The notes: generated from the letters alone by a model not told the origin. DNA of 64,000 nucleotides from Deltaproteobacteria bacterium (GCA_029860075.1 JAOUBX010000001.1:89965-153964); one strand, 5' to 3'. Shown: positions 5,049-60,525, counted from the stretch's first letter. Program-made: numbers and translations.

Positions 5049-5960
5049 TTAAAAATCGAGCGGGCTTCCGGTTTTCTTGATGGTTGTCGTCTTGATTGTA
5101 TGGGTGTAAATCATGGTCGTTCGTATGTCACTATGCCCCAGTAGCTGCCGGATTGTCCTGATATCGTAATTAGCCTGGAGCAGATGACTGGCAAAACTGT
5201 GCCGGAAGGTATGAGCACTTACCCTTTTTATAATGCCTGCCTGCTTAACGGCTCTTTTCACTGCTTTATTGACGTGGCTTTCGTGCAGGTGATATTGTCG
5301 CAGTTCTTCTGTCTCGGGTACTTTTGTCAGATTAATTGCGGGGAAAAACCACTGCCGGGGCAATTCTTTAGCACAGTTTTTGTATTTTTTCTCAATGGCA
5401 TTGAACATAAAAGCACCATCATAGGCAGCCTTTTCGTCTTCCTGGAGTACCTTCTTTACGTTTTCAATCTAACCCGTTAGTTGAGGATAAATACTTTCCG
5501 GTAAAGGTACCGTCCTGTCCTTTTGTCCTTTCCCGTCATGGATTGTAAGAATCGCTGTATCAAAATTAAAATTGTTGATGCCTAATTTAAGACATTCAAA
5601 AAGGCGTAAGCCGCAACCACAGAGTAGCTTGACTACCAGATCATAAGGGTGTTCAAGAGAATCGAGTACAAGGTTGACTTCTTCTTTTGATAAAACGACT
5701 GGAATATAAGGTTTTTTTTTGCTCTTACATTGTCTTTATGCTGGCCAAAGTCTTTTTTGATAATATGCTTATAAAAAAAGAGCAATGCATTAAAAGGCTG
5801 GTTTTGTATTGATGAACTACGGAAGATTGCATTAATAATGGGGCAAAAGTGAATTATAAGAACTTGTTTATCAAAAAAAGAGGCTTTGTTTTTTTTAAAT
5901 TGAGAAATCAGGCAATATATTCTTGAAAAAAGGTAATGATTGCGATAAAGATAAGTTATT
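5049..5960 (-). pseudogene. intI: Integron integrase (IntI-family tyrosine recombinase), disrupted.
   Basis: Minus-strand translation aligns with IntI. It gives NALLFFY...PYIPVVLSKEEV...LLCGCGLRLFECLKL...DGKGQKDRTVPLPESIYPQLTG(TAG)IENVKK...WFFPA...HTFRHSFASHLLQANYDIRTIRQLLGHSDIRTTMIYTH. The IntI-specific extra segment (WFWVFA-like WFFPA plus the following helix) is present. The gene is interrupted by an in-frame TAG near 5475 and by a frameshift in a 9-T homopolymer near 5711-5719. No canonical start codon precedes the N-terminus, which is degraded. Confidence 0.75.
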
Positions 5961-6040
5961 AAATTTAATTATTGGTTGCGGTAAGGGGAATTCTACTAAT
6001 AGGGTTTTTCTACAGCCTCGTTAGCTGATAAAACAATTAA
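5960..6040. other. Putative attI region between intI and the first cassette.
   Basis: The sequence tttttctacagcctcGTTAGCT near 5990-6020 resembles the 3' half of the downstream attC site (ttttcctacagactcGTTATATT at 10185-10206). It lies where attI is expected, immediately 5' of intI on the opposite strand. Confidence 0.35.
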
Positions 6041-6051
6041 GTGAGTAAGAT

Positions 6052-6699
6052 ATGAAAACAAATGGTTGGGTAGAAATAATTAAGTCCATTAAAACTCCAA
6101 TTAGCTTACTTGCTCTAATCACCTTGATCGTCGGGTCGTTACTACATTTCAATCCAGATCCAGTAAGTAGATGGGCGGCAATATTTTTGCTTTTTATAAT
6201 CACTATATTTACTATCGCATACGCCATCAAGTATAAGTCGCTATTCCCAACTGAAATAAGATCGATCTGGAGTAAAAATGATCTTCCATTAGAAGAGAGC
6301 GAAAGAGACTCATGGTTAGGTAAATGGAACTGTCGTTGGACATTTAGAGAAAAAGACAATCAGCTTAAGCCATATGTGGATGATATTATTGAAATCAATG
6401 AAATTGGTTGTAACAGTGGTGAATTGACTGGTATGGGCTTTTCTTCCTATATTGAAGGGTCAAAATATTTTCTCAAAGGCCGAGTGTCAAATAAAAGAAT
6501 TGCACACATATTTTATACTAGTTCTGCGGAAACAGCCGGATTGTCAGGCATGGTTATTTTAAGTCGTCCCCCTATTGGTGATATCACAGGATGGTGGCTT
6601 GGTGCAGGGCGTAAAGGTGGAGATATTGGTGGAGGGGTAACTATGGAACGGCATGAGAACAACCTTGATTTCAAGATTAAAAAGTACGAAATCAGCTAA
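6052..6699 (+). CDS. Cassette ORF: hypothetical membrane protein with two N-terminal TM helices and a Gly-rich C-terminal domain.
   Basis: 215-aa ORF starting 30 bp after the putative attI, followed directly by an attC-like hairpin. AT-rich codon usage is typical of integron cassettes. Confidence 0.55.
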   Translation: MKTNGWVEIIKSIKTPISLLALITLIVGSLLHFNPDPVSRWAAIFLLFIITIFTIAYAIKYKSLFPTEIRSIWSKNDLPLEESERDSWLGKWNCRWTFREKDNQLKPYVDDIIEINEIGCNSGELTGMGFSSYIEGSKYFLKGRVSNKRIAHIFYTSSAETAGLSGMVILSRPPIGDITGWWLGAGRKGGDIGGGVTMERHENNLDFKIKKYEIS

Positions 6700-6707
6700 G
6701 TCTTTTT

Positions 6708-6777
6708 AAATAACAGCAGCTATCCAATGGGTCAAGTTGACGCCTAAAAGCGGCGCAACTTACCCATAACGTTATGT
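6708..6777 (+). repeat. attC-like recombination site (ATAAC ... ATAAC|GTTAT).
   Basis: Imperfect hairpin: AAGTTGACGCC pairs with GGCGCAACTT with one extrahelical base. It is flanked by ATAAC (6710-6714) and GTTAT (6771-6775) and sits between two same-strand ORFs. Confidence 0.5.
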
Positions 6778-6794
6778 GTAAATAAGGAGCAATC

Positions 6795-7211
6795 ATGTCG
6801 AAAATGCAAAGCCATTTGGAAATGATTCAGGGGATAATAAATCGATTGTCTCACAATTCTTTCCTACTAAAAGGATGGACTGTAGTGCTAGTTTCAGCCC
6901 TCTTTGCTCTCGCAGCAAAAGACAAGAATGCACTATTCATCTACCTGTCATACTTTCCTTCTATTGCATTTTGGTGTCTTGATGGATACTTCCTGTGGCA
7001 AGAAAGACTTTTTAGAGCTTTATACGATAATGTACGTGTAATGAAAGAAGAAAATATCGATTATTCAATGAATGTCAAAAATGCTGACATTTCGGAGATT
7101 ACTTGGTCAAGTGCTTTTCTTTCAAAAACACTCATTATGTTTCATGGTGTAATTCTCGGTTCTATAATCATTGTAATGCTTCTAACCTTAAAAGGAGGGT
7201 GTAATGGCTAG
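6795..7211 (+). CDS. Small 2-TM protein, SLATT-like (DUF4231-like) putative membrane effector.
   Basis: 138 aa with two predicted TM helices (GWTVVLVSALFALAA and LIMFHGVILGSIIIVMLL) and a conserved soluble segment between them. The stop overlaps the start of the downstream TIR-like gene (ATGGCTAG). Similarity to SLATT is my inference from architecture, not a verified alignment. Confidence 0.5.
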   Translation: MSKMQSHLEMIQGIINRLSHNSFLLKGWTVVLVSALFALAAKDKNALFIYLSYFPSIAFWCLDGYFLWQERLFRALYDNVRVMKEENIDYSMNVKNADISEITWSSAFLSKTLIMFHGVILGSIIIVMLLTLKGGCNG

Positions 7212-7614
7212 AAAAGTTTTTTTTAGTTTTCATTATGCAGATATAATGAATGCAAACATTGTTAGAAATTCTGGACAATTTAAACCAACAGCTGAAACTG
7301 GATTTTATGATAAGTCCCTTTGGGAGGATGCAGAGACTAAAGGAAAGACCGCTATTCAAAAATTAATAGACGATGGTCTTCATAACACTAGCGTTACATG
7401 CTTTCTTCTCGGAGAAAAAACATATGCCCGTCCTTACTGCAAGTATGAGCTTGAAAAAAGTCTCGATGAGAAAAAAGGTATTCTTGGGATATTATTACCA
7501 AATCAAGAAAAACATGGCCCAAAATGGATTAGTAAATATGGAAGAGTATACAGTTGGGACCATAGTAAATTTGCTGATTGGGTTGAGAAAGCTGCAAGGG
7601 ATGCTGGGAGATAA
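7204..7614 (+). CDS. TIR-like domain protein (DUF1863/MTH538-type TIR fold).
   Basis: The N-terminus MARKVFFSFHYAD matches the kVFISYshxD beta-A strand signature of TIR-like domains. The later VTCFLLGEKTYARPYCKYELEKS segment matches the VivliSxnxxxSxWvxxEl helix region. Start overlaps the upstream 2-TM ORF by 8 nt. Confidence 0.6.
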   Translation: MARKVFFSFHYADIMNANIVRNSGQFKPTAETGFYDKSLWEDAETKGKTAIQKLIDDGLHNTSVTCFLLGEKTYARPYCKYELEKSLDEKKGILGILLPNQEKHGPKWISKYGRVYSWDHSKFADWVEKAARDAGR

Positions 7615-8482
7615 CAGTAATAAAAACACTACAGGGGTTGATGGGGTCGGACAGGACTTTAACCTGCTAGATATGTTGCCGGTAACGGCGTACGGTCCGA
7701 CCCCATTGCAGCATGCGTTGATAACAAAAGAAAAGGGGGCACTCAAATTGAAGATTCTATATGCCGAAGATGAGGAAAGACTCCAAAAGTCTACTGCGAT
7801 GCTAATGAGTTGTTGGGGGTATGATTTTGACTTGGCTTCTAATGGTCAAGATGTGGTTGAATATGCCAAAGCAAATGAAGGAGGATATGACCTTTGCCTG
7901 ATGGATGTTGATATGCCCATCATGAATGGTTGCGAAGCAACGGAAATGATACGTCAAAAGTTTCAATATTTTCCTATTATGGGGCTATCAGGAAATCCGC
8001 AATATAAAGATAAATGTCTTGAAATCGGTATGGATGATTTTTTGTCAAAACCCTGTTCTCCAGACGAACTTCTTGCTAAAATCAATGAGCTAACAGTCAA
8101 GTTTGAAAAACTATGCTTTAAAGATGAAACTATTTTTTTGAAAAAGGAGATGCCCATGGACCAGCAACATGCACAAGAATTGAGAGAATTAAAAAAGCAA
8201 GATTTGATTAAAGTTAAATTTGATGATGTAAGCGGTTCAGAGGTTGTTGTTCATAAAAACATTATCAACAAAATTGTTCAGGATTTTAACATCAAAAAAC
8301 AGTTTGTTTCGACATTCATAAACCGCAACCCCGAGAAACCAACCAAGTGTATCCTCTTTGGCAATAATTGCCGTATGCCACAAATGTATCTTGATGGTGA
8401 GGATTATGAAGGCGAGTTGCAAGCAGAAAACGAAGAAGTAAAAAAGTACCCATCCATGATTTTGAAAGCCGAAGAAAAGTAA
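7601..8482 (+). CDS. Response-regulator receiver (REC/CheY-like) domain protein with an uncharacterised ~170-aa C-terminal domain.
   Basis: LKILYAEDEE...DLCLMDVDMPIMNGCEATEMIRQ...IMGLSGNP...GMDDFLSKP is a canonical REC domain (acidic pocket, phospho-acceptor Asp in LMDVDMP, conserved Lys in SKP). Start is uncertain: 7601 overlaps the TIR gene end by 14 nt; 7673 is the alternative. The six-frame ORF's 7373 start lies inside the TIR gene and is unlikely. Confidence 0.6.
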   Translation: MLGDNSNKNTTGVDGVGQDFNLLDMLPVTAYGPTPLQHALITKEKGALKLKILYAEDEERLQKSTAMLMSCWGYDFDLASNGQDVVEYAKANEGGYDLCLMDVDMPIMNGCEATEMIRQKFQYFPIMGLSGNPQYKDKCLEIGMDDFLSKPCSPDELLAKINELTVKFEKLCFKDETIFLKKEMPMDQQHAQELRELKKQDLIKVKFDDVSGSEVVVHKNIINKIVQDFNIKKQFVSTFINRNPEKPTKCILFGNNCRMPQMYLDGEDYEGELQAENEEVKKYPSMILKAEEK

Positions 8483-8647
8483 AATACAAAGCTAATCTTC
8501 GGCGGAACTTTCAGGCCTCTGAAAATCCAACAGAACTTCGAGCGACTTCAAACTGGAGCAGCTCAAAATGTCCAGCCAATGCTAAAAGCTCGTGGCTGAA
8601 AAGTGAGGGCAAACAAAAGTAGGTTGCCCTCAAGAAACGTGGAATTT

Positions 8648-8768
8648 CTAACAAATCAATAAAGAGGGAGCACCAAACATGCGTACTTGATTTTAGTATC
8701 TTACTCCGCTTAAACATTGTCGGTGGTTTTGGGCTGGTTGCCCCGCATGTTTGGCACCCCCTTATTGT
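8648..8768 (+). repeat. VCR-like attC site, copy A of a repeated ~110-bp element.
   Basis: CTAACaaatcaATAAAGAGGGAgcaccAAACATGCGTACTTGATTTT ... GCCCCGCATGTTTGGcaccCCCTTATTGT. The terminal arms are inverse complements with bulges and the centre is variable. It lies between the REC-gene stop and the next cassette ORF and is nearly identical at its ends to copy B at 11613-11721. Confidence 0.55.
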
Positions 8769-8787
8769 GTCGTAATGCTTTTAAAAC

Positions 8788-9243
8788 ATGAAAGAATGCC
8801 CAACATTTGAAAATGCAATCCAGTCCTTTGAAGGATTTTTGAAATCAGAGAATAAATCCCAGGCGATTCAATGGTTATTTCGTGAAGATATCACAACTTA
8901 CAAATTAAAAATGTGGATCAAAATCCCTTATTTTGAAAATCACTGGGAGGTAGCAAAGAAAATTTACCAATTGGGGTTAGATCGTGGGTTCGGTATCAGA
9001 ATCATCCAGATTGGTTCTATTAATAATGATTCTTTATGCTACATCTGGTTGCCACAAGATGAATTAGATATGGACCAATCAATGATGGACCATAATCTGA
9101 AATTAAGTATTTCTCAAACAAACCGGGGGATTACTCCGATTAAAAATAGCGGTTTCTGGAATTTAATAAAATGGGTAAACTCCAAGAGGGGCTACAATTA
9201 TTTAGAAAGTGATATGCCAAGTAGAAAATCATTGATGGTATAA
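8788..9243 (+). CDS. Cassette ORF: hypothetical soluble protein (151 aa).
   Basis: ORF begins 20 bp after the attC-like repeat, on the same strand as all other cassettes. No recognisable domain. Confidence 0.5.
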   Translation: MKECPTFENAIQSFEGFLKSENKSQAIQWLFREDITTYKLKMWIKIPYFENHWEVAKKIYQLGLDRGFGIRIIQIGSINNDSLCYIWLPQDELDMDQSMMDHNLKLSISQTNRGITPIKNSGFWNLIKWVNSKRGYNYLESDMPSRKSLMV

Positions 9244-9392
9244 CAATGAAATACACACCAACCTGGAACCCTGCACTTTTTTGTATGCTTTTGGTAGATT
9301 TGGAGTGCATCATTTTTTCCGCACTGGCTGGAAGGTCCCAGGCGGGTGATTTAGATGCTAGCCTTACGAAATTAAAGAATGGAGAATAATAG

Positions 9393-10001
9393 ATGAGAAC
9401 GACCCTAATAGTCTTATTTTTAATAGCTATGCTCATTTCTTCGACTCAAACATTTCGGCACTTTTATGTGAAGTTTATTCATCCAACTGGCTCGGTTTTG
9501 GACCAATTTAAAACAGAAACTGAATCAGATATCGAAAAAGCAAAAAGTATAGATGATCTTGTTACACTTTATCGTAAGGCAAAAGATGAAATTAAAAAAT
9601 ATGAATCAGACTCCAGCAATCCGAAAATTGAACACAAACGTCGAAAAAATATTGAACCGTATAAATCTGAAATTCAAATTAAAGGGGAAATACGATCAAG
9701 AGAATACGATCAAAATCAACTGTTCAAATTATGCTTTTATTGGCTTTGTGGATTGCTTAGCACACTTATAGGCATCTTTGCTTTCAAGAAAATTAATAAT
9801 TGGTTGGGACTTTCAGGAATAATTGTAGGGTTTTCCGAAATGCTATGTTGGACAAGTCCACTATTTCACAATCGTCTACTTAGTCAACAATATGAATACT
9901 TGTTGAATTATAAATTATTGTTCTCGTTTGTAACTATGGTTTTCCTGGCATCACTTTGGCTAATAGTTGAAAAGAGGGACTTTTTAGCAGAAAAAGGCTA
10001 A
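9393..10001 (+). CDS. Cassette ORF: hypothetical membrane protein with an N-terminal TM, a charged coiled middle and three C-terminal TM helices.
   Basis: 202-aa ORF with RBS-like gaatggagaat upstream, followed by an attC-like hairpin. Confidence 0.5.
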   Translation: MRTTLIVLFLIAMLISSTQTFRHFYVKFIHPTGSVLDQFKTETESDIEKAKSIDDLVTLYRKAKDEIKKYESDSSNPKIEHKRRKNIEPYKSEIQIKGEIRSREYDQNQLFKLCFYWLCGLLSTLIGIFAFKKINNWLGLSGIIVGFSEMLCWTSPLFHNRLLSQQYEYLLNYKLLFSFVTMVFLASLWLIVEKRDFLAEKG

Positions 10002-10044
10002 AAAGGTGCTTGAAAACGATGCAGAAACCAGCACGTTTCAGCTC

Positions 10045-10206
10045 AAACGTTGAAGCTGTAGGAAAACCCCTTTTGAAGTTTTTTTTTGGAAAAACCACAA
10101 AAATGACAAATATTTAATTCAATAAAATCAGCATGTTAGGAAATCGAAAAAATTATATTTTCGTAAATTTTTATTAAATTTGAGTTTTCCTACAGACTCG
10201 TTATAT
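10045..10206 (+). repeat. attC-like site with a long AT-rich loop.
   Basis: AACGTTGAAGCTGTAGGAAAAC (10046-10067) pairs with GTTTTCCTACAGACTCGTTAT (10185-10204). The 3' arm ends in GTTAT as in the other sites. A smaller hairpin (GCTTGAAAACG/CGTTTCAGC) lies just upstream at 10009-10044. Confidence 0.4.
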
Positions 10207-10255
10207 TGTTTTTATAAGATACTTAAGTTTCTCGCTTTGAGTGGAGGTATAACAT

Positions 10256-10468
10256 ATGGAAACATTTATTAATATTTTTGTCAGTTGGTTCCCAATGATC
10301 CTTTTAATTGCGGTCTGGGTACTTATGGTGAAAAAAATCAGGCCAACACAAAAAGAGTCTGTTTCTTTAATGAGGAAGCAAGCTGAACTCTTAGAACAGC
10401 ATCTTCAACAGGCCGAGCGAATAGCAAGTGCTCTCGAAAAAATCTCTCAAAAATTGAATTCAGAATGA
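10256..10468 (+). CDS. Cassette ORF: small single-TM protein with a C-terminal coiled coil (70 aa).
   Basis: Strong RBS (gagtggaggtataacatATG), a hydrophobic helix (FPMILLIAVWVLMV) and an amphipathic tail. No family assignment. Confidence 0.45.
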   Translation: METFINIFVSWFPMILLIAVWVLMVKKIRPTQKESVSLMRKQAELLEQHLQQAERIASALEKISQKLNSE

Positions 10469-10575
10469 GTATATACAAAGAAACAATATGACCAGTCACT
10501 AAACCGGACCGTACACCCACGTTGGCTCTTGCCAATGGCTCCGGCTTGGTCGATTGGCTTTACGTTAGAGCTCAA

Positions 10576-10965
10576 ATGAAAAAAACAATTAGCATAGTTT
10601 CAATTTTTCTTTTGGTAATTTTTATCGGATATGCAGTTATTAAAATTATTGGGTCAGCTGGTAATATTAATAACCCCGATGCTCAACTAGAAGCAATGCT
10701 ACCAGAGGAAAGAGAATTCTGTAAAAAAGTCCTATGGCAGATTAAACCTGAATCTAGTGTAAAAGATGTAATAACATTACTTGGTAAGCCATCTCGTGAT
10801 TTAAAACTTAAAAAGAATTGGTGGATGAAATTAAACGGAAAAAAGGACAGAGTGGGCGTTTATTTTACCTTGTCAGGCTTTGCAGAAGAGGTTGTTTTAG
10901 ATGGAGGGCCAGGCAGATTCTACTATAGAAGAAAAGTATCAGATCATGTGAGTAAAAACTTCTAA
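10576..10965 (+). CDS. Cassette ORF: small secreted or membrane-anchored protein (130 aa from MKKTISIV).
   Basis: Signal-peptide-like N-terminus MKKTISIVSIFLLVIFIGYAV. The six-frame ORF extends to 10522, but that Met has no RBS and the 10576 Met gives a typical signal peptide. The stop TAA sits inside the CTAAC inverse core of the next attC. Confidence 0.5.
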   Translation: MKKTISIVSIFLLVIFIGYAVIKIIGSAGNINNPDAQLEAMLPEEREFCKKVLWQIKPESSVKDVITLLGKPSRDLKLKKNWWMKLNGKKDRVGVYFTLSGFAEEVVLDGGPGRFYYRRKVSDHVSKNF

Positions 10966-11038
10966 CATTCTCATTCACCAGATCGTCACCTTCGCCTTTT
11001 CGGGCTCCGGTGCTAACTGGTGATGAAGGGTGTTAGGA
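10961..11038 (+). repeat. Canonical attC site (inverse core TCTAAC ... core GTTAGG).
   Basis: 78-bp imperfect palindrome with TTCACCAG/CTGGTGA(tg)AA arms and an inner ATCGTCACC/GGTGCTAA pair with bulged bases. It begins with CTAAC overlapping the ORF stop codon and ends with GTTAGG, as in classical integron attC sites. Confidence 0.65.
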
Positions 11039-11054
11039 ATACAAAGTAAAAGAG

Positions 11055-11549
11055 TTGGAACAATTCAAATATAGCCATACACTAGAACTGTCGGAGTCTG
11101 AATATGCCGATATATACGGCATTTACTCAAGGCGTTCACGTCCTTGGCGACGGTCTTTGGTCGTCATTGGTGGTGTCGCTTGTTTGTTTTGGACTTACAC
11201 GCTTCTTTTAGGAATCGTACTACTCGGTTTGGCATGCTTGGCTGTTTTCGAACCACGCATGGTACCCTTTGGTGCGTCATCGATATTCAAGGGTCACGCT
11301 CATTTGCATCAGCCACTCACTTTTGGAGTTTCCGATGTGAAACTATCGGTTTCGGGATCCAATTTGAATTTATATTGTGATTGGTCAAATCTCGCAGTGT
11401 GGTATGAACGCGACGGCTGGTTACGTGTTTCACCGCATGGTATGCAAGATTTGTATTTTCGTGTTTCAGATTTACAGGAGAAAGCGGTGTATAATAGCGT
11501 CTTAGAATTGTGCCGGAAACACGGGAAAGAGTTTAATAGTAAGGATTAA
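11055..11549 (+). CDS. Cassette ORF: membrane-associated hypothetical protein (YcxB-like or bacterial PH-like, tentative).
   Basis: 164 aa with two TM helices after a basic RSRPWRRS stretch and a C-terminal beta-rich domain. The stop is followed by CTAAC. Confidence 0.45.
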   Translation: MEQFKYSHTLELSESEYADIYGIYSRRSRPWRRSLVVIGGVACLFWTYTLLLGIVLLGLACLAVFEPRMVPFGASSIFKGHAHLHQPLTFGVSDVKLSVSGSNLNLYCDWSNLAVWYERDGWLRVSPHGMQDLYFRVSDLQEKAVYNSVLELCRKHGKEFNSKD

Positions 11550-11553
11550 TTTC

Positions 11554-11721
11554 CTAACAAATTGACCGTTAAAACGCGGTTGTGTTTTAACGTCGGCTTA
11601 CTTGAACCAGCAAATAAAGAGGGACCGCCAAACACGCGTACTTGATTTTCAGCGTGTCGTCCCGCAGTAACATTGCGGTAATTTAAAGGCCTCGGCCCGC
11701 ACGTTTGGCGGCCCCTTATTG
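11554..11721 (+). repeat. VCR-like attC site, copy B, carrying a ~47-bp mini-hairpin insertion.
   Basis: Same terminal arms as copy A (AAATAAAGAGGGAccgcCAAACAcGCGTACTTGATTTT ... GCCCGCACGTTTGGcggcCCCTTATTGT). Between the CTAACaaat motif and the repeat body sits the insertion tgaccgTTAAAACgcggttgtGTTTTAAcgtcggcttacttgaaccag, a perfect 9-bp stem-loop that is absent from copy A. Confidence 0.55.
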
Positions 11722-11757
11722 TTGTTGTTATATTTTTGTTACCCATAAGGTAAGTAA

Positions 11758-12402
11758 ATGAATTTGGAACTCCATCACTTTTTCATTCTTGTTAAGCCTG
11801 AGGCAGAAGTCGCGGAAAAATTGATATCAATTGGGATGTGCGAGGGAACAAGAAACAAGCATGAAGGGCAAGGAACTTCAAACAGGCGTTTTAACTTCTC
11901 AAACGGGACTCTAGAGCTGTTATGGGTTCATGATGAAGAGGAGGCAGTTAACGGTCCAGGGAAGGGTATGTGTTTAGCAGAGCGGACTAAAAATACAAGC
12001 GCTTCACCATTTGGGGTTATTTTTAATAGAAAGGATAATTGTAGTCAAGAAATGCCATTTGAAGGATGGAAGTACGAACCTGTCTATTTTCAAGCGCCGT
12101 GGGCTTTTCATATTGGGGCTAACTCGAAGAGCATAGTTGAACCACTCTGTGTATATATGCCATTTATTGAGCCTGGAATGTCAAAAGGACTTGATGAGAA
12201 CGAAACATTTAAGTCTATAACTCAAGTAAAGGTACATACTCCATCGGAACCAATGTCGAATGTTCTGGATATTGTGAAAAACGCTGAAAGGTTAACCATT
12301 GTAAATGGTAAAGAACATTTAATAGAAGTTACTTTCAATGAGAATCATATGGGTTGTTCACAGGATTTCAGGCCAGATCTTCCGCTGGTGGTTAATTGGT
12401 AA
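11758..12402 (+). CDS. Cassette ORF: glyoxalase/VOC-like (Glyoxalase_3-like) domain protein.
   Basis: LHHFFILVKPEAEVAEKL...HEGQGTSNRRFNFSNGTLELLWV resembles the glyoxalase-like domain family. This is the last same-strand small ORF before the convergent giant gene. Confidence 0.45.
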   Translation: MNLELHHFFILVKPEAEVAEKLISIGMCEGTRNKHEGQGTSNRRFNFSNGTLELLWVHDEEEAVNGPGKGMCLAERTKNTSASPFGVIFNRKDNCSQEMPFEGWKYEPVYFQAPWAFHIGANSKSIVEPLCVYMPFIEPGMSKGLDENETFKSITQVKVHTPSEPMSNVLDIVKNAERLTIVNGKEHLIEVTFNENHMGCSQDFRPDLPLVVNW

Positions 12403-12659
12403 GGGATTGAGTGAATAAAAATATAACGATTAGCTACACCGGGTAGTGTTCCACGGCACTTTTTTGTGCTTGAGTAGCACAAAAGAATCACCACTCCAAA
12501 ATGCAGGTTAGCACAGTGTTATAATTGTGCTTCCGGCGGAGGTATATCCGAATCCTTCTTACCTGATACTCTCTCAAAGAGGACGGGGCTTTCGTGCAGT
12601 TGCCATAATGAAAGTAGTCCAGCCACCCTCGGCCATTAATGTCACCTCAGAGCGCTTAT

Positions 12660-52236: not shown

Positions 52237-52851
52237 CTATTTAGTTATTGATAGTAACTCAGGAGCTGATGGCGGGTCAATATCGTATATTCCACTTATT
52301 TCTATCTCCATTGCGCTTTGCCTTGCAAGCAGTACAAGAGGACCCTCTGTCAGTGGGGAAAGGTTAACGGTTATACTCCAGTTTCCACTGGCATCAGAGG
52401 TGGTGCTGCCAAGCAAAGTCATGGAATTCTTGTCGAATGTTTCTATTAAGGTAGATGCAACTCCCGTACCTGTAAGCGTAAAAGAGGTATAGTTGCTTAA
52501 GTTTGCCTTAAAATTATCTCCCGGGATTTGTATGTTAAATGTGCTGATTTCATTTGAAAACTCACTTTCGTTCCCTTTGGCGTCGAATGATTTCATAACA
52601 AAAAAATAAACCTCGCCGTTAGGCAGGCCCGTTATTGTGTGGCTCGTCTGGTTCCCCATGACAGGAGGCGTATTGTTTGTGTAAACACCGCTCCTATTGC
52701 CCCAGTAGATGACGAAATGGTCAATATACAGCCCTTCATCCCAGGTTGACCAGCCAAGGGTTACGTCCAGGGCAAGCGCCGGTGTCGATATGAACAGTGA
52801 AACAAGGAGGTTGATAATAAATATTTTTATTTTCTTCTTAAAAGATCTCAT
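52237..52851 (-). CDS. Secreted fibronectin-type-III-like domain protein.
   Basis: Signal peptide, then TLGWSTW...YFFVMKSFDAKGNESEFSNEIS, an FN3-like pattern. Confidence 0.6.
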   Translation of the reverse strand: MRSFKKKIKIFIINLLVSLFISTPALALDVTLGWSTWDEGLYIDHFVIYWGNRSGVYTNNTPPVMGNQTSHTITGLPNGEVYFFVMKSFDAKGNESEFSNEISTFNIQIPGDNFKANLSNYTSFTLTGTGVASTLIETFDKNSMTLLGSTTSDASGNWSITVNLSPLTEGPLVLLARQSAMEIEISGIYDIDPPSAPELLSITK

Positions 52852-53659: not shown

Positions 53660-53691
53660 AAAAAAGCCGCCAGAAGTTTATCTCTGGCGGC
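53660..53691 (-). terminator. Rho-independent terminator-like hairpin on the minus strand (GCCGCCAGA-N8-TCTGGCGGC followed by T6 in minus-strand sense).
   Basis: Perfect 9-bp GC-rich stem immediately followed by a run of six U in the minus-strand transcript. No annotated minus-strand gene lies upstream of it. Confidence 0.5.
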
Positions 53692-54121
53692 CCGGCTGAC
53701 AGTATATCCTTTTTTCCGTGATCATTCCGGATATCTAAGTCCCGAAGCTCTGCGTCCCGGGGTTTCCCCCAGTTTGCTCTGAGCAGAGTGCGATTTATAA
53801 ATCAGGATTATAACAATTGTACTGATCTACAGTTAAAATGATATCTTTTTAATAGAAAAAAATCAAGATGAATTTGCCTGGAAAGGGTAGACGGCTGTGG
53901 GTTTATAGCATAAGCTCCTGGTTTCAAAGGGTTTTTAAAAAAATGGCTTCAACTTATGCTTAGTCGGGTATTTATAAAATGTTTTGCTTGCCTTCGCCCG
54001 CTGGCATTTTAAGGCCGCCATGACAGGAAAATTCATGTCCCATTGGAAATATGGTCTTTATAAGTTGCATGTTAAAGAGTACAATTTTAAAATATGAGTA
54101 ATTTTACAAGAGGTTGATTCT

Positions 54122-55362: not shown

Positions 55363-58300
55363 ATGAAGTTGTCAGGGAGTTTTTTTTCAATAAGAAATAT
55401 AAGTATGCCTTTGGGAATGTTGCTGGCTTTCTATCTCTTCTCTCTGGCCAAACCTGTTGAGCTTAATGCGGCCCCGGCTCCGGCGTCGCTGATCCAGACC
55501 ATTGATACATCCCGGTTAACCCCGCCCAGTCCGGATCCGGCAGGTCTTTGCTATCTCAATTTTTCCGATACTTTCTTGATCAGTGATTCAGAAGTCAATG
55601 AGATGCCCATCTTTACCGGTGATAACCTCTTTGAAATATCTCCATCAGGCATCCTGACGAGTACCATGACTACCTTGCCTTTTTCTTTTGAGCCTACCGG
55701 CGTCACGCTTAATACGAATAATAACCATCTTTTTTTTACAGATGATAATGAAGGATTTATTATTGAAGTAAATCCCGGGCCTGACGGGAGCTATTTCACA
55801 GGAGACGATAGCGTTACTTATTCCGACACCTTTTTATTCAATTGTACTGATCCTGAAGGCATTACTTTTGACAGCCTGCAGGGAGATCTTTATGTTGCCT
55901 GTGGATTAGATGCTCTCGTTTCCCGCGTCTCTCCCGGAGTCAACGGTTTTTTTGACGGCGCGCCGCCTGTCGGTGATGACGAGGTGACCAATTTCGATAC
56001 GGCAAGCCTCGGTGTCATTGATCTTGAAGGGATTACCTATGATTCCGATAACGGTCTTTTGTATATCGTCGGTGAACCTGGTGATTTATTAGCGCATATC
56101 ACAACTGACGGCAAGCTTGTGCGGATGATCGATATTTCAGTGATAAATGCCATAGACCCGGCTGGTCTGGCTTATGCGCCGAGCAGTATTGATCCTTCCG
56201 TTATGAGCATCTATCTTTCCGACAGGGGTATTGATAATAATGATGATCCATCAGAAAATGACGGTAAGTTCCATGAACTGTCCATACCGCTCATTTCGGA
56301 AGGCAATTTAATGCCTTATGTCTTTGCAGGACCGGACCAGGCCATCATTTTTCCCGATGACGCTCTCCTCGATGCTATCGCCTCTGATGACGGCCTTCCC
56401 TATCCACCGCAGCTGATTATCACCTGGAGCGTTATGAGCGGACCGGGAACAGTCACCTTTAGTGATGCCGGTGCCCTGAAGACGACTGTCGGCTTTTCGG
56501 AACCGGGGGCATATGTGCTGCGTTTGACAGCGGCAGACGGCGAGTTTGAGAGCACAGATGAGTTGAACATTTTTGTGTCCCATTTGGCCTATACGCCCGC
56601 TGCGGATACTTTTGTTGATAAGGCTAATCCCGGTACCAATTTTGGGAGCGCGCCGGACCTTGAGATAAGCGCCCTTGGTGATGGATCGCCACAAGAGACT
56701 GCTTACCTTCAATTTGACGTCGTTGGACTTGCCGGTCCCGTACAGTCGGCCAAAGTGAGGTTAGAAGTAAGCAATGCCGGCGTATTTGGAGGCAGTATTC
56801 ATTCCGTGCCGGATAATAGCTGGGGAGAATATACCCTTGACTTTAACAGTAAACCGCCCCATGAAAGTCAAAGTCTGGATGCCCTGGGAAAGGTGAATGC
56901 CGGTGATACGGTATTGTTCGATGTGACAGAGGCCATTAGCGGAGAGGGCACTTATAGCTTTGCCATTTCGGGAGTCAACCCTGCCTGCACAGGCGGCAGT
57001 GATGGATCGATGGGGGAAAGCGGGGACCTGGGGACTTACGCATCGAATTTGACGGGAGAAAAAGTTTATTTCAGTCCTTTTATCCCTGCAAATAGCGGCA
57101 TGGTATCCTATATTCATTTTGAAGAATTCTCCGCTGACGGCCCGCTGCGGGCGGGGGTCTATGATCAACTGGGGAACCTGCTTGCTTCCTCTGTGGAGCT
57201 TAGGGGAAATAATTCCAACCCCGGTATGGAGATGCACGCGGCCCTTGATCAAGCTATCTGTTTAACCTCAGGGCAAACCTATTATCTGGCCCTTTGGGTG
57301 GGTAAGGACGGATGGGCCGGTACCGCTTATGGCGGACCGGGCGGGGGAACCTATTATGTCAGTGATGTGCCGTCTTTTCCCGCATCATTGTCATTGCCGG
57401 GAAATACTCAGAGCGGTTCCACCTCAATGAGGATCACAGTCAATAACAGCCCTGATTCCTTTGCCGGCGGCACTGCGGCAGTTGCAGCTTACCGTTCTCG
57501 CGAGTATCTGAATAATCCGCCAATGTTAATTATCAATCCTGTTCCCATCGGTATTCCATCAGCCGTAAATGATGCATTTAGCATGGATGAAAATACGACA
57601 CTAAGCGGCAGCGTTATAACTAACGACAGTCCGGGCGATGTTCCCATCACAGTGAGCGAGCTTGTCGGTGTAAATAACGGTCTGCTGACTTTGAATGACG
57701 ACGGCATTTTTTCCTATACGCCGAATGCCGACTTTAACGGCACAGACAGTTTTATCTACCGGCTGACCGATGCCGATAATGAAAGCTCCGACGGCACAGT
57801 GACCATAACGGTGACAGCCGTCAATAGCGGGGTGCCGGTAGCCGTCGATGATCCGGCAGCAGCCGTAACGCCGGAGGATACGCCGGTGACTACTATCAAC
57901 GTGCTTTTAAATGACACGTTGGCAGATAACGCCGTCATCAGCGCCTTTGACGCTATTAGTGTGAATGGCGGGGTGGTGGTTTATAATGGTGACGGCACAT
58001 TTACCTATACGCCGGCTTTGGGTTTCAATGGCACGGACAGCTTTACCTACCTGTTGATTGATGATGACGGTGAATCCGGTACGGCTGCTGTGGCCGTCAC
58101 GGTGACAGCCGTTAATAGCGGGGTACCGGTGGCTGTCGATGACCCGGCGGCTGCGACAACGGCCGATGGCATAGCGGTGACTACCATTGACGTGCTCTTA
58201 AATGATACGCTCGTGGACAATGCCGTCATAAGCGCCTTTGACGCTATTAGTGTGAATGGCGGAGCGGTGGTTAATAATGGCGACGGCACATTTACCTATA

Positions 58301-60525
58301 CGCCCACATCGGGTTTTACCGGCACGGACAGCTTTACCTATACACTGACCGATGATGATGGTGAATCCGGTACGGCCACGGTGACCGTTACCGTGACATC
58401 CGTCAATAGCGGGGCGCCGGTGGCTGTCGATGATCCGGCGGCGGGGACAACGCTTGAGGGTACACCGCTGACTACCATTGACGTGCTCTTAAATGATACG
58501 CTCGTGGACAACGCCGTCATAAGCGCCTTTGACGCTATTAGTGTGAATGGCGGAGCGGTGGTTAATAATGGAGACGGCACATTTACCTATATGCCGGTAT
58601 CGGGTTTTACCGGTACGGACAGCTTCACTTATACGCTCACCGACGACGATGGTGAATCCGCCACAGCCACGGTAACCGTCACAGTGACTCTGCCCGTCCT
58701 TTGTGATGGCGGCAGCAATGGATCGATGGGGGACAGCAGGGATCCGGAAACTTATGCGGCGAACCGCAGAGGAGAAAAAGTTTATTTCAGTCCTTACACA
58801 CCTGATGTGAGTGGAAGGGTATCCTATATTCACTTCGAAGAATTTTCCGCCGGAAGTCCCATAAGGGCGGGAATTTATGACCACCTGGGGAATTTACTGG
58901 CTTCTTCTGCGGAGCTAATGGGAAACAATTCCAAACCCGGTATGGAGGTTCATGCAGCGCTTGATCAAACTGTCTGTTTAGCCTCGGGGCAAACTTATTA
59001 TCTGGCCCTTTGGGTGGGCAAGGACGCATGGGCAGGCACTGCTTATGGCGGACCGGGCGGAGGAACATTTTATAACAGTGATGTCTTGTCTTTCCCTTCA
59101 TCCCTCCTATTGCCGGGAAATCAGCAGAGCGGCTATACTTCGATCAGGATTACAGTGAATAATAAACCGAACGCCTTTGATCCGGGTATTCCCGTTGCGG
59201 TAAATGATGCATTCACCATTAGTGAAAATACGACACTTAGTGGCAGCGTTATAACTAATGACAGTCCGGGCGATGTTCCCATTACAGTGAGCGAGCTTGT
59301 CGGTGTAAATAACGGTCTGCTGACTTTGAATGGCGACGGCGCTTTTTCCTATACGCCGAATGCCGGTTTTAACGGCACAGACAGTTTTATCTACCGGCTG
59401 ACCGATGCCGATAATGAAAGCTCCGACGCCACAGTGACTATTACGGTAACAGCCGTCAATAGCGGAACGCCGGTAGCCGTCGATGATCCGGCGGCAGGGA
59501 CGACAACGGAGGACACGCCGGTGACTACCATTAATGTGCTTTTAAATGACACGCTCATAGACAATGCAGTAATCAGCGCCTTTGAAGACGTTAGCGCAAG
59601 TGGCGGAACGGTGGTTAATAATGGCGACGGCACATTCACCTACACACCGGCATCAGGTTTCAATGGTACGGACAGTTTTATCTACGTGCTGACCGACGAT
59701 GATGGAGAATCCAGTATGGCCGCAGTAGCTGTTACAGTGATATCGGTCAATAGCGGGGCACCGGTGGCGGTCGATGATCCGGCGGCAGGGACAACGCCGG
59801 AAGGCACGCCGCTGACTACCATCAATGTGTTCTTAAATGATACGCTTGTGGACAATGCCGTCATAAGCGCCTTTGACGCTATTAGTGTGAATGGCGGGAC
59901 GGTAGTTAATAATGGTGACGGCACATTTACTTACACACCGGCATCGGGTTTTAGCGGCACGGACAGCTTTACCTATACACTGACCGACGATGATGGTGAA
60001 TCCGGTACGGCAACAGTAACCGTTACGGTGACTTTACCCGTCTCCTGTGTTGGCGGCAGTAACGGATCCATGGGGGACAGTACGGATCCGGGAACTTATG
60101 CGGCTAATTCTACAGGAGAGAAAGTGTATTTCAGTCAATTTATACCTGTCAATGGTGGAAGGGTTACCTATATTCATTTTGAAGAATTCTCTGCCGGTGG
60201 TCCGGTGCGGGCGGGGATCTATGATCACCTTGGGAATTTGCTGGCTTCCTCTGCCGAACTTGCGGGAAATAACTCAAACCCCGGCATGGAGATGCATGCG
60301 GCACTTGACCAGGATGTTTGTTTAGTCTCAGGGGAAACCTATTATCTGGCCCTCTGGGTGGGCAATGACGCATGGGCCGGCGCCGCTTATGGCGGACCGG
60401 GCGGGGGAACCTATTATAACAGCGATGTGCCGGCTTTCCCCTCTTCTTTAGCATTACCGGGAAATAAACAGAGTGGTTCTACCTCGGTGAGGATGACCGT
60501 AAACAACAGCGCCGACGCTTTTTAA
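55363..60525 (+). CDS. Giant secreted repeat protein (~1720 aa): N-terminal SdiA-regulated/phytase-like beta-propeller, a DNRLRE/CBM96-like domain, then three copies of a ~165-aa Cys-containing domain interleaved with cadherin/VCBS-like ~97-aa tandem repeats.
   Basis: Signal peptide MKLSGSFFSIRNISMPLGMLLAFYLFSLA with a ggagga RBS. DNRLRE-like segment LAYTPAADTFVDKANPGTNFGS...AYLQFDV. Repeats of VNSG.PVAVDDPAA.T...T.I.VLLNDTL.DNAVISAF...NGDGTFTYTP..GF.GTDSFTY.LTDDDGES. No PEP-CTERM tail. Confidence 0.85.
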   Translation: MKLSGSFFSIRNISMPLGMLLAFYLFSLAKPVELNAAPAPASLIQTIDTSRLTPPSPDPAGLCYLNFSDTFLISDSEVNEMPIFTGDNLFEISPSGILTSTMTTLPFSFEPTGVTLNTNNNHLFFTDDNEGFIIEVNPGPDGSYFTGDDSVTYSDTFLFNCTDPEGITFDSLQGDLYVACGLDALVSRVSPGVNGFFDGAPPVGDDEVTNFDTASLGVIDLEGITYDSDNGLLYIVGEPGDLLAHITTDGKLVRMIDISVINAIDPAGLAYAPSSIDPSVMSIYLSDRGIDNNDDPSENDGKFHELSIPLISEGNLMPYVFAGPDQAIIFPDDALLDAIASDDGLPYPPQLIITWSVMSGPGTVTFSDAGALKTTVGFSEPGAYVLRLTAADGEFESTDELNIFVSHLAYTPAADTFVDKANPGTNFGSAPDLEISALGDGSPQETAYLQFDVVGLAGPVQSAKVRLEVSNAGVFGGSIHSVPDNSWGEYTLDFNSKPPHESQSLDALGKVNAGDTVLFDVTEAISGEGTYSFAISGVNPACTGGSDGSMGESGDLGTYASNLTGEKVYFSPFIPANSGMVSYIHFEEFSADGPLRAGVYDQLGNLLASSVELRGNNSNPGMEMHAALDQAICLTSGQTYYLALWVGKDGWAGTAYGGPGGGTYYVSDVPSFPASLSLPGNTQSGSTSMRITVNNSPDSFAGGTAAVAAYRSREYLNNPPMLIINPVPIGIPSAVNDAFSMDENTTLSGSVITNDSPGDVPITVSELVGVNNGLLTLNDDGIFSYTPNADFNGTDSFIYRLTDADNESSDGTVTITVTAVNSGVPVAVDDPAAAVTPEDTPVTTINVLLNDTLADNAVISAFDAISVNGGVVVYNGDGTFTYTPALGFNGTDSFTYLLIDDDGESGTAAVAVTVTAVNSGVPVAVDDPAAATTADGIAVTTIDVLLNDTLVDNAVISAFDAISVNGGAVVNNGDGTFTYTPTSGFTGTDSFTYTLTDDDGESGTATVTVTVTSVNSGAPVAVDDPAAGTTLEGTPLTTIDVLLNDTLVDNAVISAFDAISVNGGAVVNNGDGTFTYMPVSGFTGTDSFTYTLTDDDGESATATVTVTVTLPVLCDGGSNGSMGDSRDPETYAANRRGEKVYFSPYTPDVSGRVSYIHFEEFSAGSPIRAGIYDHLGNLLASSAELMGNNSKPGMEVHAALDQTVCLASGQTYYLALWVGKDAWAGTAYGGPGGGTFYNSDVLSFPSSLLLPGNQQSGYTSIRITVNNKPNAFDPGIPVAVNDAFTISENTTLSGSVITNDSPGDVPITVSELVGVNNGLLTLNGDGAFSYTPNAGFNGTDSFIYRLTDADNESSDATVTITVTAVNSGTPVAVDDPAAGTTTEDTPVTTINVLLNDTLIDNAVISAFEDVSASGGTVVNNGDGTFTYTPASGFNGTDSFIYVLTDDDGESSMAAVAVTVISVNSGAPVAVDDPAAGTTPEGTPLTTINVFLNDTLVDNAVISAFDAISVNGGTVVNNGDGTFTYTPASGFSGTDSFTYTLTDDDGESGTATVTVTVTLPVSCVGGSNGSMGDSTDPGTYAANSTGEKVYFSQFIPVNGGRVTYIHFEEFSAGGPVRAGIYDHLGNLLASSAELAGNNSNPGMEMHAALDQDVCLVSGETYYLALWVGNDAWAGAAYGGPGGGTYYNSDVPAFPSSLALPGNKQSGSTSVRMTVNNSADAF
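56980..60522 (+). repeat. Intragenic segmental triplication plus tandem ~290-bp repeats inside the giant secreted-protein gene.
   Basis: Near-identical nucleotide blocks: the ~500-bp domain at about 56980-57480, 58700-59190 and 60045-60520; ~290-bp units at about 57540-58700 (four units) and 59190-60040 (three units). Confidence 0.8.

Follow-up and report, generated by a model that had tools for sequence, protein, structure and literature searches.

The bottom strand of an attC site folds into an imperfect hairpin in which an R box (R'/R'', AAC/GTT) is followed by an unpaired spacer of 4-5 nt, an L box, a stem with extrahelical bases, which are expected on the R''-L'' arm, and a variable loop. 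The integron integrase IntI binds this folded form and cleaves in the R' box, and gene cassettes are excised or inserted. In the 59-base element attC-aadA7, the structure of which belongs to established integron knowledge (Mazel, Bouvier, Nivina and colleagues), these parts are laid out as R''-spacer-L''...L'-spacer-R', and known integrons carry one such site at each cassette 3' end, in an array beside intI and attI. The Vibrio cholerae repeats (VCRs), in turn, are long (~130 nt) attCs that occur as paralogues in a single chromosomal array and vary more in the centre than in the arms, which are conserved. Here we consider two related repeats, copy A and copy B, within a 64,000-nt stretch of DNA (the window) from an uncultured Deltaproteobacteria bacterium (GCA_029860075.1, JAOUBX010000001.1:89965-153964), the sequence of which comes from a metagenome contig of 184 kb (ena:ERZ27296429). 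We conclude that A and B are very probably two paralogous attC sites ending gene cassettes of a sedentary chromosomal integron and, as such, a fresh instance of a well-known site type. This identity, put forward in the original prediction from the sequence alone, has strong support: the sites lie in an integron, show the R''/L''/L'/R' anatomy, have pairing that is specific to the bottom strand, and are matched by covariance models (CMs) built on attCs of other integrons.

Copy A reads TTCTAAC-AAATC-[AATAAAGAGGG...CCCTTATTG]-TGTC-GTAATGC: R'' TTCTAAC occupies 8646-8652, the spacer AAATC leads to the L'' box and stem from 8658, L' ends at 8767, and the spacer TGTC precedes R' GTAATGC at 8772-8778, in which GTT is mutated to GTA. 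Its stem arms are AATAAAGAGGGAGCACCAAACATGCG and, beyond a centre of ~60 nt, CGCATGTTTGGCACCCCCTTATTG. Copy B reads [AATAAAGAGGG...CCCTTATTG]-TTGTT-GTTATAT, with L'' and stem from 11613, the end of L' at 11721, the spacer TTGTT and R' GTTATAT at 11727-11733; in register with the R'' of A it has the box CTTGAAC (11601-11607), followed by CAGCA, which is weak as an R''. In layout, type of R box (AAC/GTT) and unpaired spacers of 4-5 nt the copies follow attC-aadA7, and they likewise have a bottom strand that folds better than the top strand and bears its extrahelical bases on the R''-L'' arm. The stem of 18-22 bp bears three bulged T's (alignment columns 112, 116 and 118) on this arm, a bulge pattern also present in the attCs of other integrons (external attCs). 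In contrast, attC-aadA7 has a G/T pair in place of the three bulged T's, and the present sites differ from it further in that the R' of A carries GTA instead of GTT, the only good R'' of B sits 48 nt from L'', and the cognate integrase is a pseudogene.

It had been proposed that the repeats end in a non-standard core, CCCTTATTGT. This sequence is in fact the L' arm (CCCTTATTG), which pairs with AATAAAG, and R' lies 4-5 nt beyond it, as GTTATAT in B and as GTAATGC in A. On the bottom strand the latter reads GCATTACG, one point mutation away from GCATAACG, a box common in the attCs of other integrons. A position weight matrix (PWM) for the spacer and R'', built from 33 external attCs, gave 11.6 bits for A, 7.9 bits for a displaced box upstream of B, and 1.1 bits for the in-register box CTTGAAC-CAGCA. 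The last of these falls below every training site and its score is reached by 1.4% of window 12-mers, whereas the displaced box falls inside the span of scores of the 33 external attCs and is equalled by 0.05% of window 12-mers.

After alignment the two copies comprise 133 nt each (A, 8646-8778; B, 11601-11733; plus strand), and B starts at 11552 if the upstream box is included. Both stand at 3' cassette ends in the orientation of the open reading frames (ORFs) that they follow, a response-regulator ORF in the case of A and an ORF of 164 aa in the case of B. The 5' arm, AATAAAGAGGGA.C.CCAAACA.GCGTACTTGATTTT, covers 37 nt at 8658-8694 and 11613-11649 with 92% identity, and the 3' arm, CCCGCA.GTTTGGC..CCCCTTATTG, lies at 8742-8767 and 11696-11721. 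With up to three mismatches allowed, each arm pattern matches exactly twice in the window, both strands included (chance expectation 0.00), and the leader CTAACAAAT occurs there only twice, at 8648 and 11554. The original prediction of two related repeats with a conserved leader therefore stands, although its estimate of ~110 bp fell short of the full elements. It had also described conserved arms around a variable centre, and pairwise alignment agrees: the stem arms share 86-88% identity and the centres 60%, with a global score of 17 against -10 +/- 4 for shuffles. Hence, the arms are conserved and the centre is more variable, yet far above shuffled sequence. There is no third copy of the element in the window, none was found by blastn of A and B against ~90 fetched integron loci, and a database of 72,556 plasmids held no match. 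Logan contigs of a second sample, SRR7134660, are identical over both copies and reveal no strain variation.

Folding distinguishes the two strands. In a structure of 28 pairs, the bottom strand forms 27 in A and all 28 in B, and the top strand 25 in each. Five stem pairs vary between the copies, one by a swap of G-C to C-G and four by G.T wobbles on the bottom strand that correspond to A.C mismatches on the other strand. It is thus only on the bottom strand that every stem difference leaves the pairing intact. As single-stranded DNA, the bottom strand is the more stable in both copies (A, -24.5 versus -19.2 kcal/mol for the top strand, z -4.5 versus -2.3; B, -23.8 versus -22.0 kcal/mol). Such bottom-strand-only pairing between paralogues illustrates the single-strand logic of attC sites, and it confirms established knowledge without extending it.

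For comparison with other integrons, 80 loci were fetched via their integrases. A grammar-based attC harvest, meant to give an unbiased generic model, was enriched upstream of intI under strict settings (19 sites versus 2). In an arms-only MAFFT alignment the harvested attCs did not fall into register, and RNAalifold detected no structure there; consequently, models were built by iterated covariance-model searches: R1 from A and B, R2 from five external sites only, all from integrons of other phyla, and R3 from 33 external sites, run without filters. R1 found matches in the expected place and orientation in loci L015, L077, L086 and L044, and the matched sites share the RAGGGG/TCCCTCTY L box, the bulged T's and the spacing to AAC and GTT. 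Within the window, R2 recognized only A (37.4 bits, E 5.7e-7) and B (42.9 bits, E 2.4e-8), each over its full length and on the bottom strand. When run against the 80 intI loci, all 32 of its matches fell upstream of intI in the attC bottom-strand orientation, a space amounting to 18% of the search. The five best window matches of R3 are likewise all on the bottom strand of the array, namely B (32.0 bits), 9996-10055, A (28.4 bits), 6718-6777 and 9238-9363. The structure of the external-site class covaries, with pairing in 89% of cells and 140 double changes, compared with 45 in shuffles, in alignments that were fitted to the model; pairing drops to 34-54% when the partners are slid. Separately, R3 gave a weak and isolated match far from the array, at 52593-52624 on the minus strand (18.7 bits, E 0.03; GCCTAACGGCGAGGT..ATTTTTTTGTTATGA), which is probably due to chance.

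The strand preference also bears on the possibility that the 133-nt repeats are a structured RNA or a regulatory element (terminator, 5'-UTR element or promoter carrier) common to two cassettes. Each copy ends 10-25 nt ahead of the next ORF start, the motif TTGATT is conserved in the centre of both, and one promoter-like match lies at 11705-11734, all of which would suit such an element. However, the bottom strand, which is not transcribed, pairs better than the top strand, and in an RNA the differences between A and B would be A.C mismatches; moreover, attC models of other integrons match the two copies only when these are read in the bottom-strand orientation, and Rfam has no family match in the region of the two copies. 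We therefore regard a shared RNA or regulatory element as extremely unlikely. Promoter and terminator readings of the array as a whole were rejected, since such matches are no more numerous than chance predicts (19 promoter-like ones against 20.8 expected, and 3 terminator-like ones against 4.6).

As attC sites, A and B share their L box and stem design with the GGGGC...GUCCCUCU sites, a class that Desulfobacterota, Nitrospirota and other integrons contain (L015, L044, L077, L086, L037 and L026). In both, RAGGGG pairs with TCCCTCTY, T's are bulged and the R'/R'' spacing is the same, and A and B score 37-43 bits on the model from five sites of this class. They differ from it in an AT-rich outer L arm (CAATAA/TTTATTG instead of GCTGA/CCAGC) and in weaker R boxes. 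The likeness to VCRs suggested at the outset holds in that A and B are long (133 nt) and paralogous; it fails in that the array is heterogeneous, only two of its ~nine attCs belonging to the family while the others measure 60-126 nt and are unrelated in sequence. Nor do A and B have any sequence relation to Vibrio. Among the fetched loci, L044 (1222-8399, a Desulfobacterium metagenome-assembled genome) holds at least five attCs of 128-131 nt, of the same structural class and with nearly identical aligned ends, and is a truly VCR-like homogeneous array. In L086 (Thermodesulfovibrionales), a distance of only 66 nt separates the attC at 6779-6837 from that at 6903-6992, and the two delimit what is apparently an ORF-less mini-cassette.

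Several observations weigh against the identification of A and B as attC sites. Their R' boxes score 2.6 and 0.1 bits, below the minimum of 5.0 among external attCs, and the R' of A is without the invariant GTT. The evidence from preserved pairing is thin, coming as it does from two sequences only, and the test of membership with R2 and R3 is not fully independent, as their training sites were first picked by the A/B model. An exact-pattern scan for the 5' arm in 185,579 GTDB species genomes gave no match, the two-arm pattern had three matches in JGI metagenomes that were coding or unrelated and at chance level, and IMG/VR yielded none; the family so far consists of two sites in one organism. 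Finally, the resident intI is inactive, and a recombination function of A and B would be assigned by analogy with other integrons.

A product of 250 aa, stitched from three-frame translations of the intI remnant on the minus strand (~5049-5830), scores 281.6 bits on the integron-integrase model TIGR02249 (cut-off 265), and the catalytic motifs AHTFRHSFASHLL and LLGHSDIRTTMIYTH are still readable. Its N-terminal domain is missing, the frame shifts near 5714-5720 and an in-frame TAG lies near 5470, and intI is therefore a pseudogene. The closest relatives, at ~72% identity, are integron integrases of uncultured Nitrospirota, anammox Planctomycetota and Desulfobacterota. An attI-like core is located directly upstream of the first cassette ORF (6052-6699), from where ~nine plus-strand cassettes extend over 6020-12530; their small ORFs (6052-12402) are each followed by an attC-like imperfect palindrome (Table 1).

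Table 1. Positions of the integron features and of the elements associated with copies A and B
Feature	Coordinates	Strand	Basis
intI pseudogene	5049-5830	-	three-frame translation and TIGR02249
Putative attI core GTTTTTCTACAGCCTCGTTA with GTTA crossover region	6004-6023	+	position between divergent intI and first cassette
attC of cassette 1, 60 nt	6718-6777	+	CM R3, 27.8 bits, E 2e-4, bottom strand
attC copy A, end of response-regulator cassette	8646-8778	+	CM R2, CM R3, spacer and R'' PWM
attC of the cassette with ORF 8788-9243	9238-9363	+	CM R3, 27.0 bits, E 3e-4
Short attC of the cassette with ORF 9393-10001	9996-10055	+	CM R3, 28.8 bits, E 1.2e-4
attC of the cassette with ORF 10576-10965, TTCTAAC ... 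GTTAGGA	10960-11038	+	direct sequence reading; no match from the class-biased CMs
Displaced R'' and spacer TCCTAACAAAT	11552-11562	+	PWM, 7.9 bits
Single-copy hairpin segment, 48 nt	11563-11610	+	sequence, fold and copy searches
attC copy B, end of the cassette with the 164-aa ORF	11601-11733	+	CM R2, CM R3

Signs of decay are not confined to the integrase. The attC at 9238-9363 has a mutated R' (CTAGC versus CTAAC on the bottom strand) and that at 9996-10055 a degenerate R'' (TAAA versus TAAC), both of which are consistent with decay after loss of the integrase. By analogy with other integrons, the bottom strands of A and B would once have folded into hairpins for IntI-mediated excision or insertion of cassettes; the integrase would then have been lost and the R boxes would have accumulated point mutations, such as GTT to GTA in the R' of A. 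Given a dead intI, point mutations in R boxes that include the R' of A, and a displaced R'' in B, the array looks like a fossil and the A and B sites are probably relics and not active substrates. Taken together, the locus offers a small and clean case of attC decay, with R-box point mutations and one attC with a displaced R''. Beyond annotation, it matters little that an uncultured bacterium has a chromosomal integron of ~nine cassettes whose integrase is inactivated.

Some further features of the array deserve mention. A second attI-like core, GTTTTCCTACAGACTCGTTA, lies mid-array at 10184-10203, in an AT-rich non-coding stretch of 250 nt, and 18 of its 20 positions agree with the attI core GTTTTTCTACAGCCTCGTTA (0.03 expected by chance); a perfect inverted repeat of 12 bp pairs it with 10056-10067, 116 nt upstream. 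None of the 80 other integron loci contains the motif, which could stem from a duplication of attI or be what is left of a second integron platform. The cassette at 6795-7614 contains two ORFs, the second of which encodes a protein with a ThsB-type TIR domain (PF08937, E 1.8e-18), and may serve in anti-phage defence. In the response-regulator cassette, a non-coding tail of 163 nt (8483-8645) precedes the attC. A homologue in L096 (73% identity; L096 1002-1110) has a tail of ~110 nt with patches of similarity, TTCGGC...TCTGAAA...CTT.GA, which suggests that a conserved 3' element travels with the response-regulator gene; an identical response regulator is present on a JGI contig.

The 5' end of copy B departs from that of A. 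Between the R'' CCTAAC (11553-11558) and the L'' of B lies a segment that the original prediction had called a 47-bp insertion; the segment is real, and an insertion or deletion relative to A is a fair description of it, but its length is 48 nt (11563-11610). The displaced R'' with its spacer, TCCTAACAAAT, lies 3 nt past the stop of the 164-aa ORF and 48 nt ahead of the point from which B resembles A, and is identical to that of A at 10 of 12 positions; its good R'' box is CCTAACAAAT. The perfect 9-bp hairpin described earlier is present within the segment, as CGTTAAAAC/GTTTTAACG at 11567-11575 and 11584-11592, and is extended by GAC/GTC with one bulged base; this is the stem anatomy of a short attC, but the segment has no R' box. 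B therefore has one good R'' and one R', with an extra hairpin module between them. The homologous cassettes offer no help on the origin of this 5' end, because the attCs of those with a homologue of the 164-aa ORF (L088, L091 and L092), like that of the response-regulator homologue (L096), are unrelated to A and B, and L089, which also has a homologue of the 164-aa ORF, has no attC after that gene. It is usual for the same cassette gene to be followed by an unrelated attC in other organisms.

Two origins of the segment, a one-off insertion and a leftover attC stem, appear roughly evenly balanced. Quite possibly, a one-off piece of hairpin DNA was inserted exactly between the R'' spacer and L'' of a once A-like B (CCTAAC-AAAT-C-AAATAAAG...), so that R'' was displaced by 48 nt; an uninterrupted B-type attC after a 164-aa ORF would then read CCTAACAAATCAAATAAAG. 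Indeed, deletion of 11563-11610 produces the junction CCTAACAAATCAAATAAAGAGGGA, nearly identical to TCTAACAAATCAATAAAGAGGGA in copy A with one extra A in B, and within the window CTAACAAAT is confined to these two places. Furthermore, it is the displaced box and not the in-register box that scores as a good R'', and in homologous cassettes the R'' of the attC overlaps the stop of this ORF, which fits a displaced box 3 nt after the stop. Against this reading, 3 of 33 unrelated attCs also contain ATTTGTTAG, which is near the consensus of the class, so that the identity of the 9-mer could be due to chance. The segment also opens with the canonical geometry of a short attC (5 nt from R'', 3 bp, one bulge, 8-9 bp), which would be unexpected for an arbitrary insert, and no source copy exists in the window, the integron loci, the plasmids or IMG/VR. 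The segment could also have been lost by A instead of gained by B.

Possibly, on the other hand, the displaced box and hairpin (11552 to ~11607) are the remnant of a short attC of ~56 nt that belonged to the 164-aa cassette and was fused to B by a deletion, which would have taken the R' of the short attC, any intervening cassette, and the R'' and spacer of B itself, leaving a single R'' and a single R'. The geometry of the segment is like that of the short attCs at L043 333-390 and L074 2555-2611: its bottom strand consists of a spacer, GAC, GTTAAAAC, a loop of 8 nt, GTTTTAAC, a bulged G, GTC, AATTT and GTTAGGA. In attC terms, the 3 bp are an L-box triplet, the bulged G is extrahelical, and AATTT is the 5-nt spacer next to R''. 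The same array contains two attCs of 60 nt and decays elsewhere too, attCs as closely spaced as 66 nt are known in L086, and a single substitution in CTTGAAC (11601-11607) would make it a perfect R', GTTGAAC. Such a fusion is, however, left with no recognisable R', the putative one scoring -10.5 to -6.9 bits on the PWM, and the R3 match to the remnant is partial and non-significant (11552-11574, 11.2 bits, E 2). It also needs the 10/12 identity of box and spacer to copy A to have arisen by chance, a ~9% event for the 9-mer, and the endpoint of the deletion to fall exactly at the L'' boundary of B.

A third origin had been favoured initially, namely a mobile hairpin that targets attC DNA. Elements with this preference do exist: IS1111-attC insertion sequences (PMC11187229) and group IIC-attC introns (PMC3001079) both break up attC sites close to one of the ends and can leave a gene cut off from its attC; the introns integrate into the bottom strand. 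The present segment likewise sits inside an attC-type site, at the R''/L'' end, has ends of the form TG...AG and folds as a hairpin. Yet these elements are 1.3-2 kb long and multi-copy and encode either a DEDD transposase or, alongside an intron RNA, a reverse transcriptase, whereas the segment is 48 nt long, far below any known attC-targeting element, is non-coding, without an ORF, and lacks recognisable element ends. It occurs once in the window at up to three mismatches and is absent from the 90-odd integron loci, the 72,556 plasmids and IMG/VR. The ends, TGACCG... and ...AACCAG, form no terminal inverted repeats, the internal hairpin being the only inverted repeat; the fold is ordinary compared with shuffles (z -0.7 and -1.5); and Rfam found no group II intron or other match in the region. 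A miniature mobile element, be it like a miniature inverted-repeat transposable element (MITE) or what remains of an IS1111-attC element or of a group IIC-attC intron, is thus very unlikely. The flanking CAAAT was considered as a target-site duplication and rejected, as CAAAT also adjoins CAAT in copy A, which is uninterrupted; such a duplication would, in addition, place CCCTCT only 6 nt from GTT on the bottom strand, compared with 10 nt in copy A and in the class consensus.

It is tempting to speculate that the segment records an attC event that has so far not been described, either a foldable insertion forming a three-way junction, in which a self-folding insert could bring R'' back beside R', or a joining of attCs at L boxes rather than R boxes. 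We consider this quite unlikely; if true, either event would be new for how cassette arrays rearrange. Copy A, for its part, is preceded by another perfect 9-bp hairpin (8604-8632, TGAGGGCAA N11 TTGCCCTCA), 13 nt upstream of its R''. This parallels the hairpin upstream of the in-register box of B, either by shared design or by coincidence.

Elsewhere in the window, a c-di-GMP-I riboswitch is present on the minus strand at 53683-53788 (RF01051, 55.1 bits, E 4.9e-8). The region 56992-60351 contains families of 300-nt direct repeats, many of them spaced 291 nt apart and sharing 78-91% identity; at a GC content of 51-52% versus ~42%, it is probably a repetitive protein-coding region.

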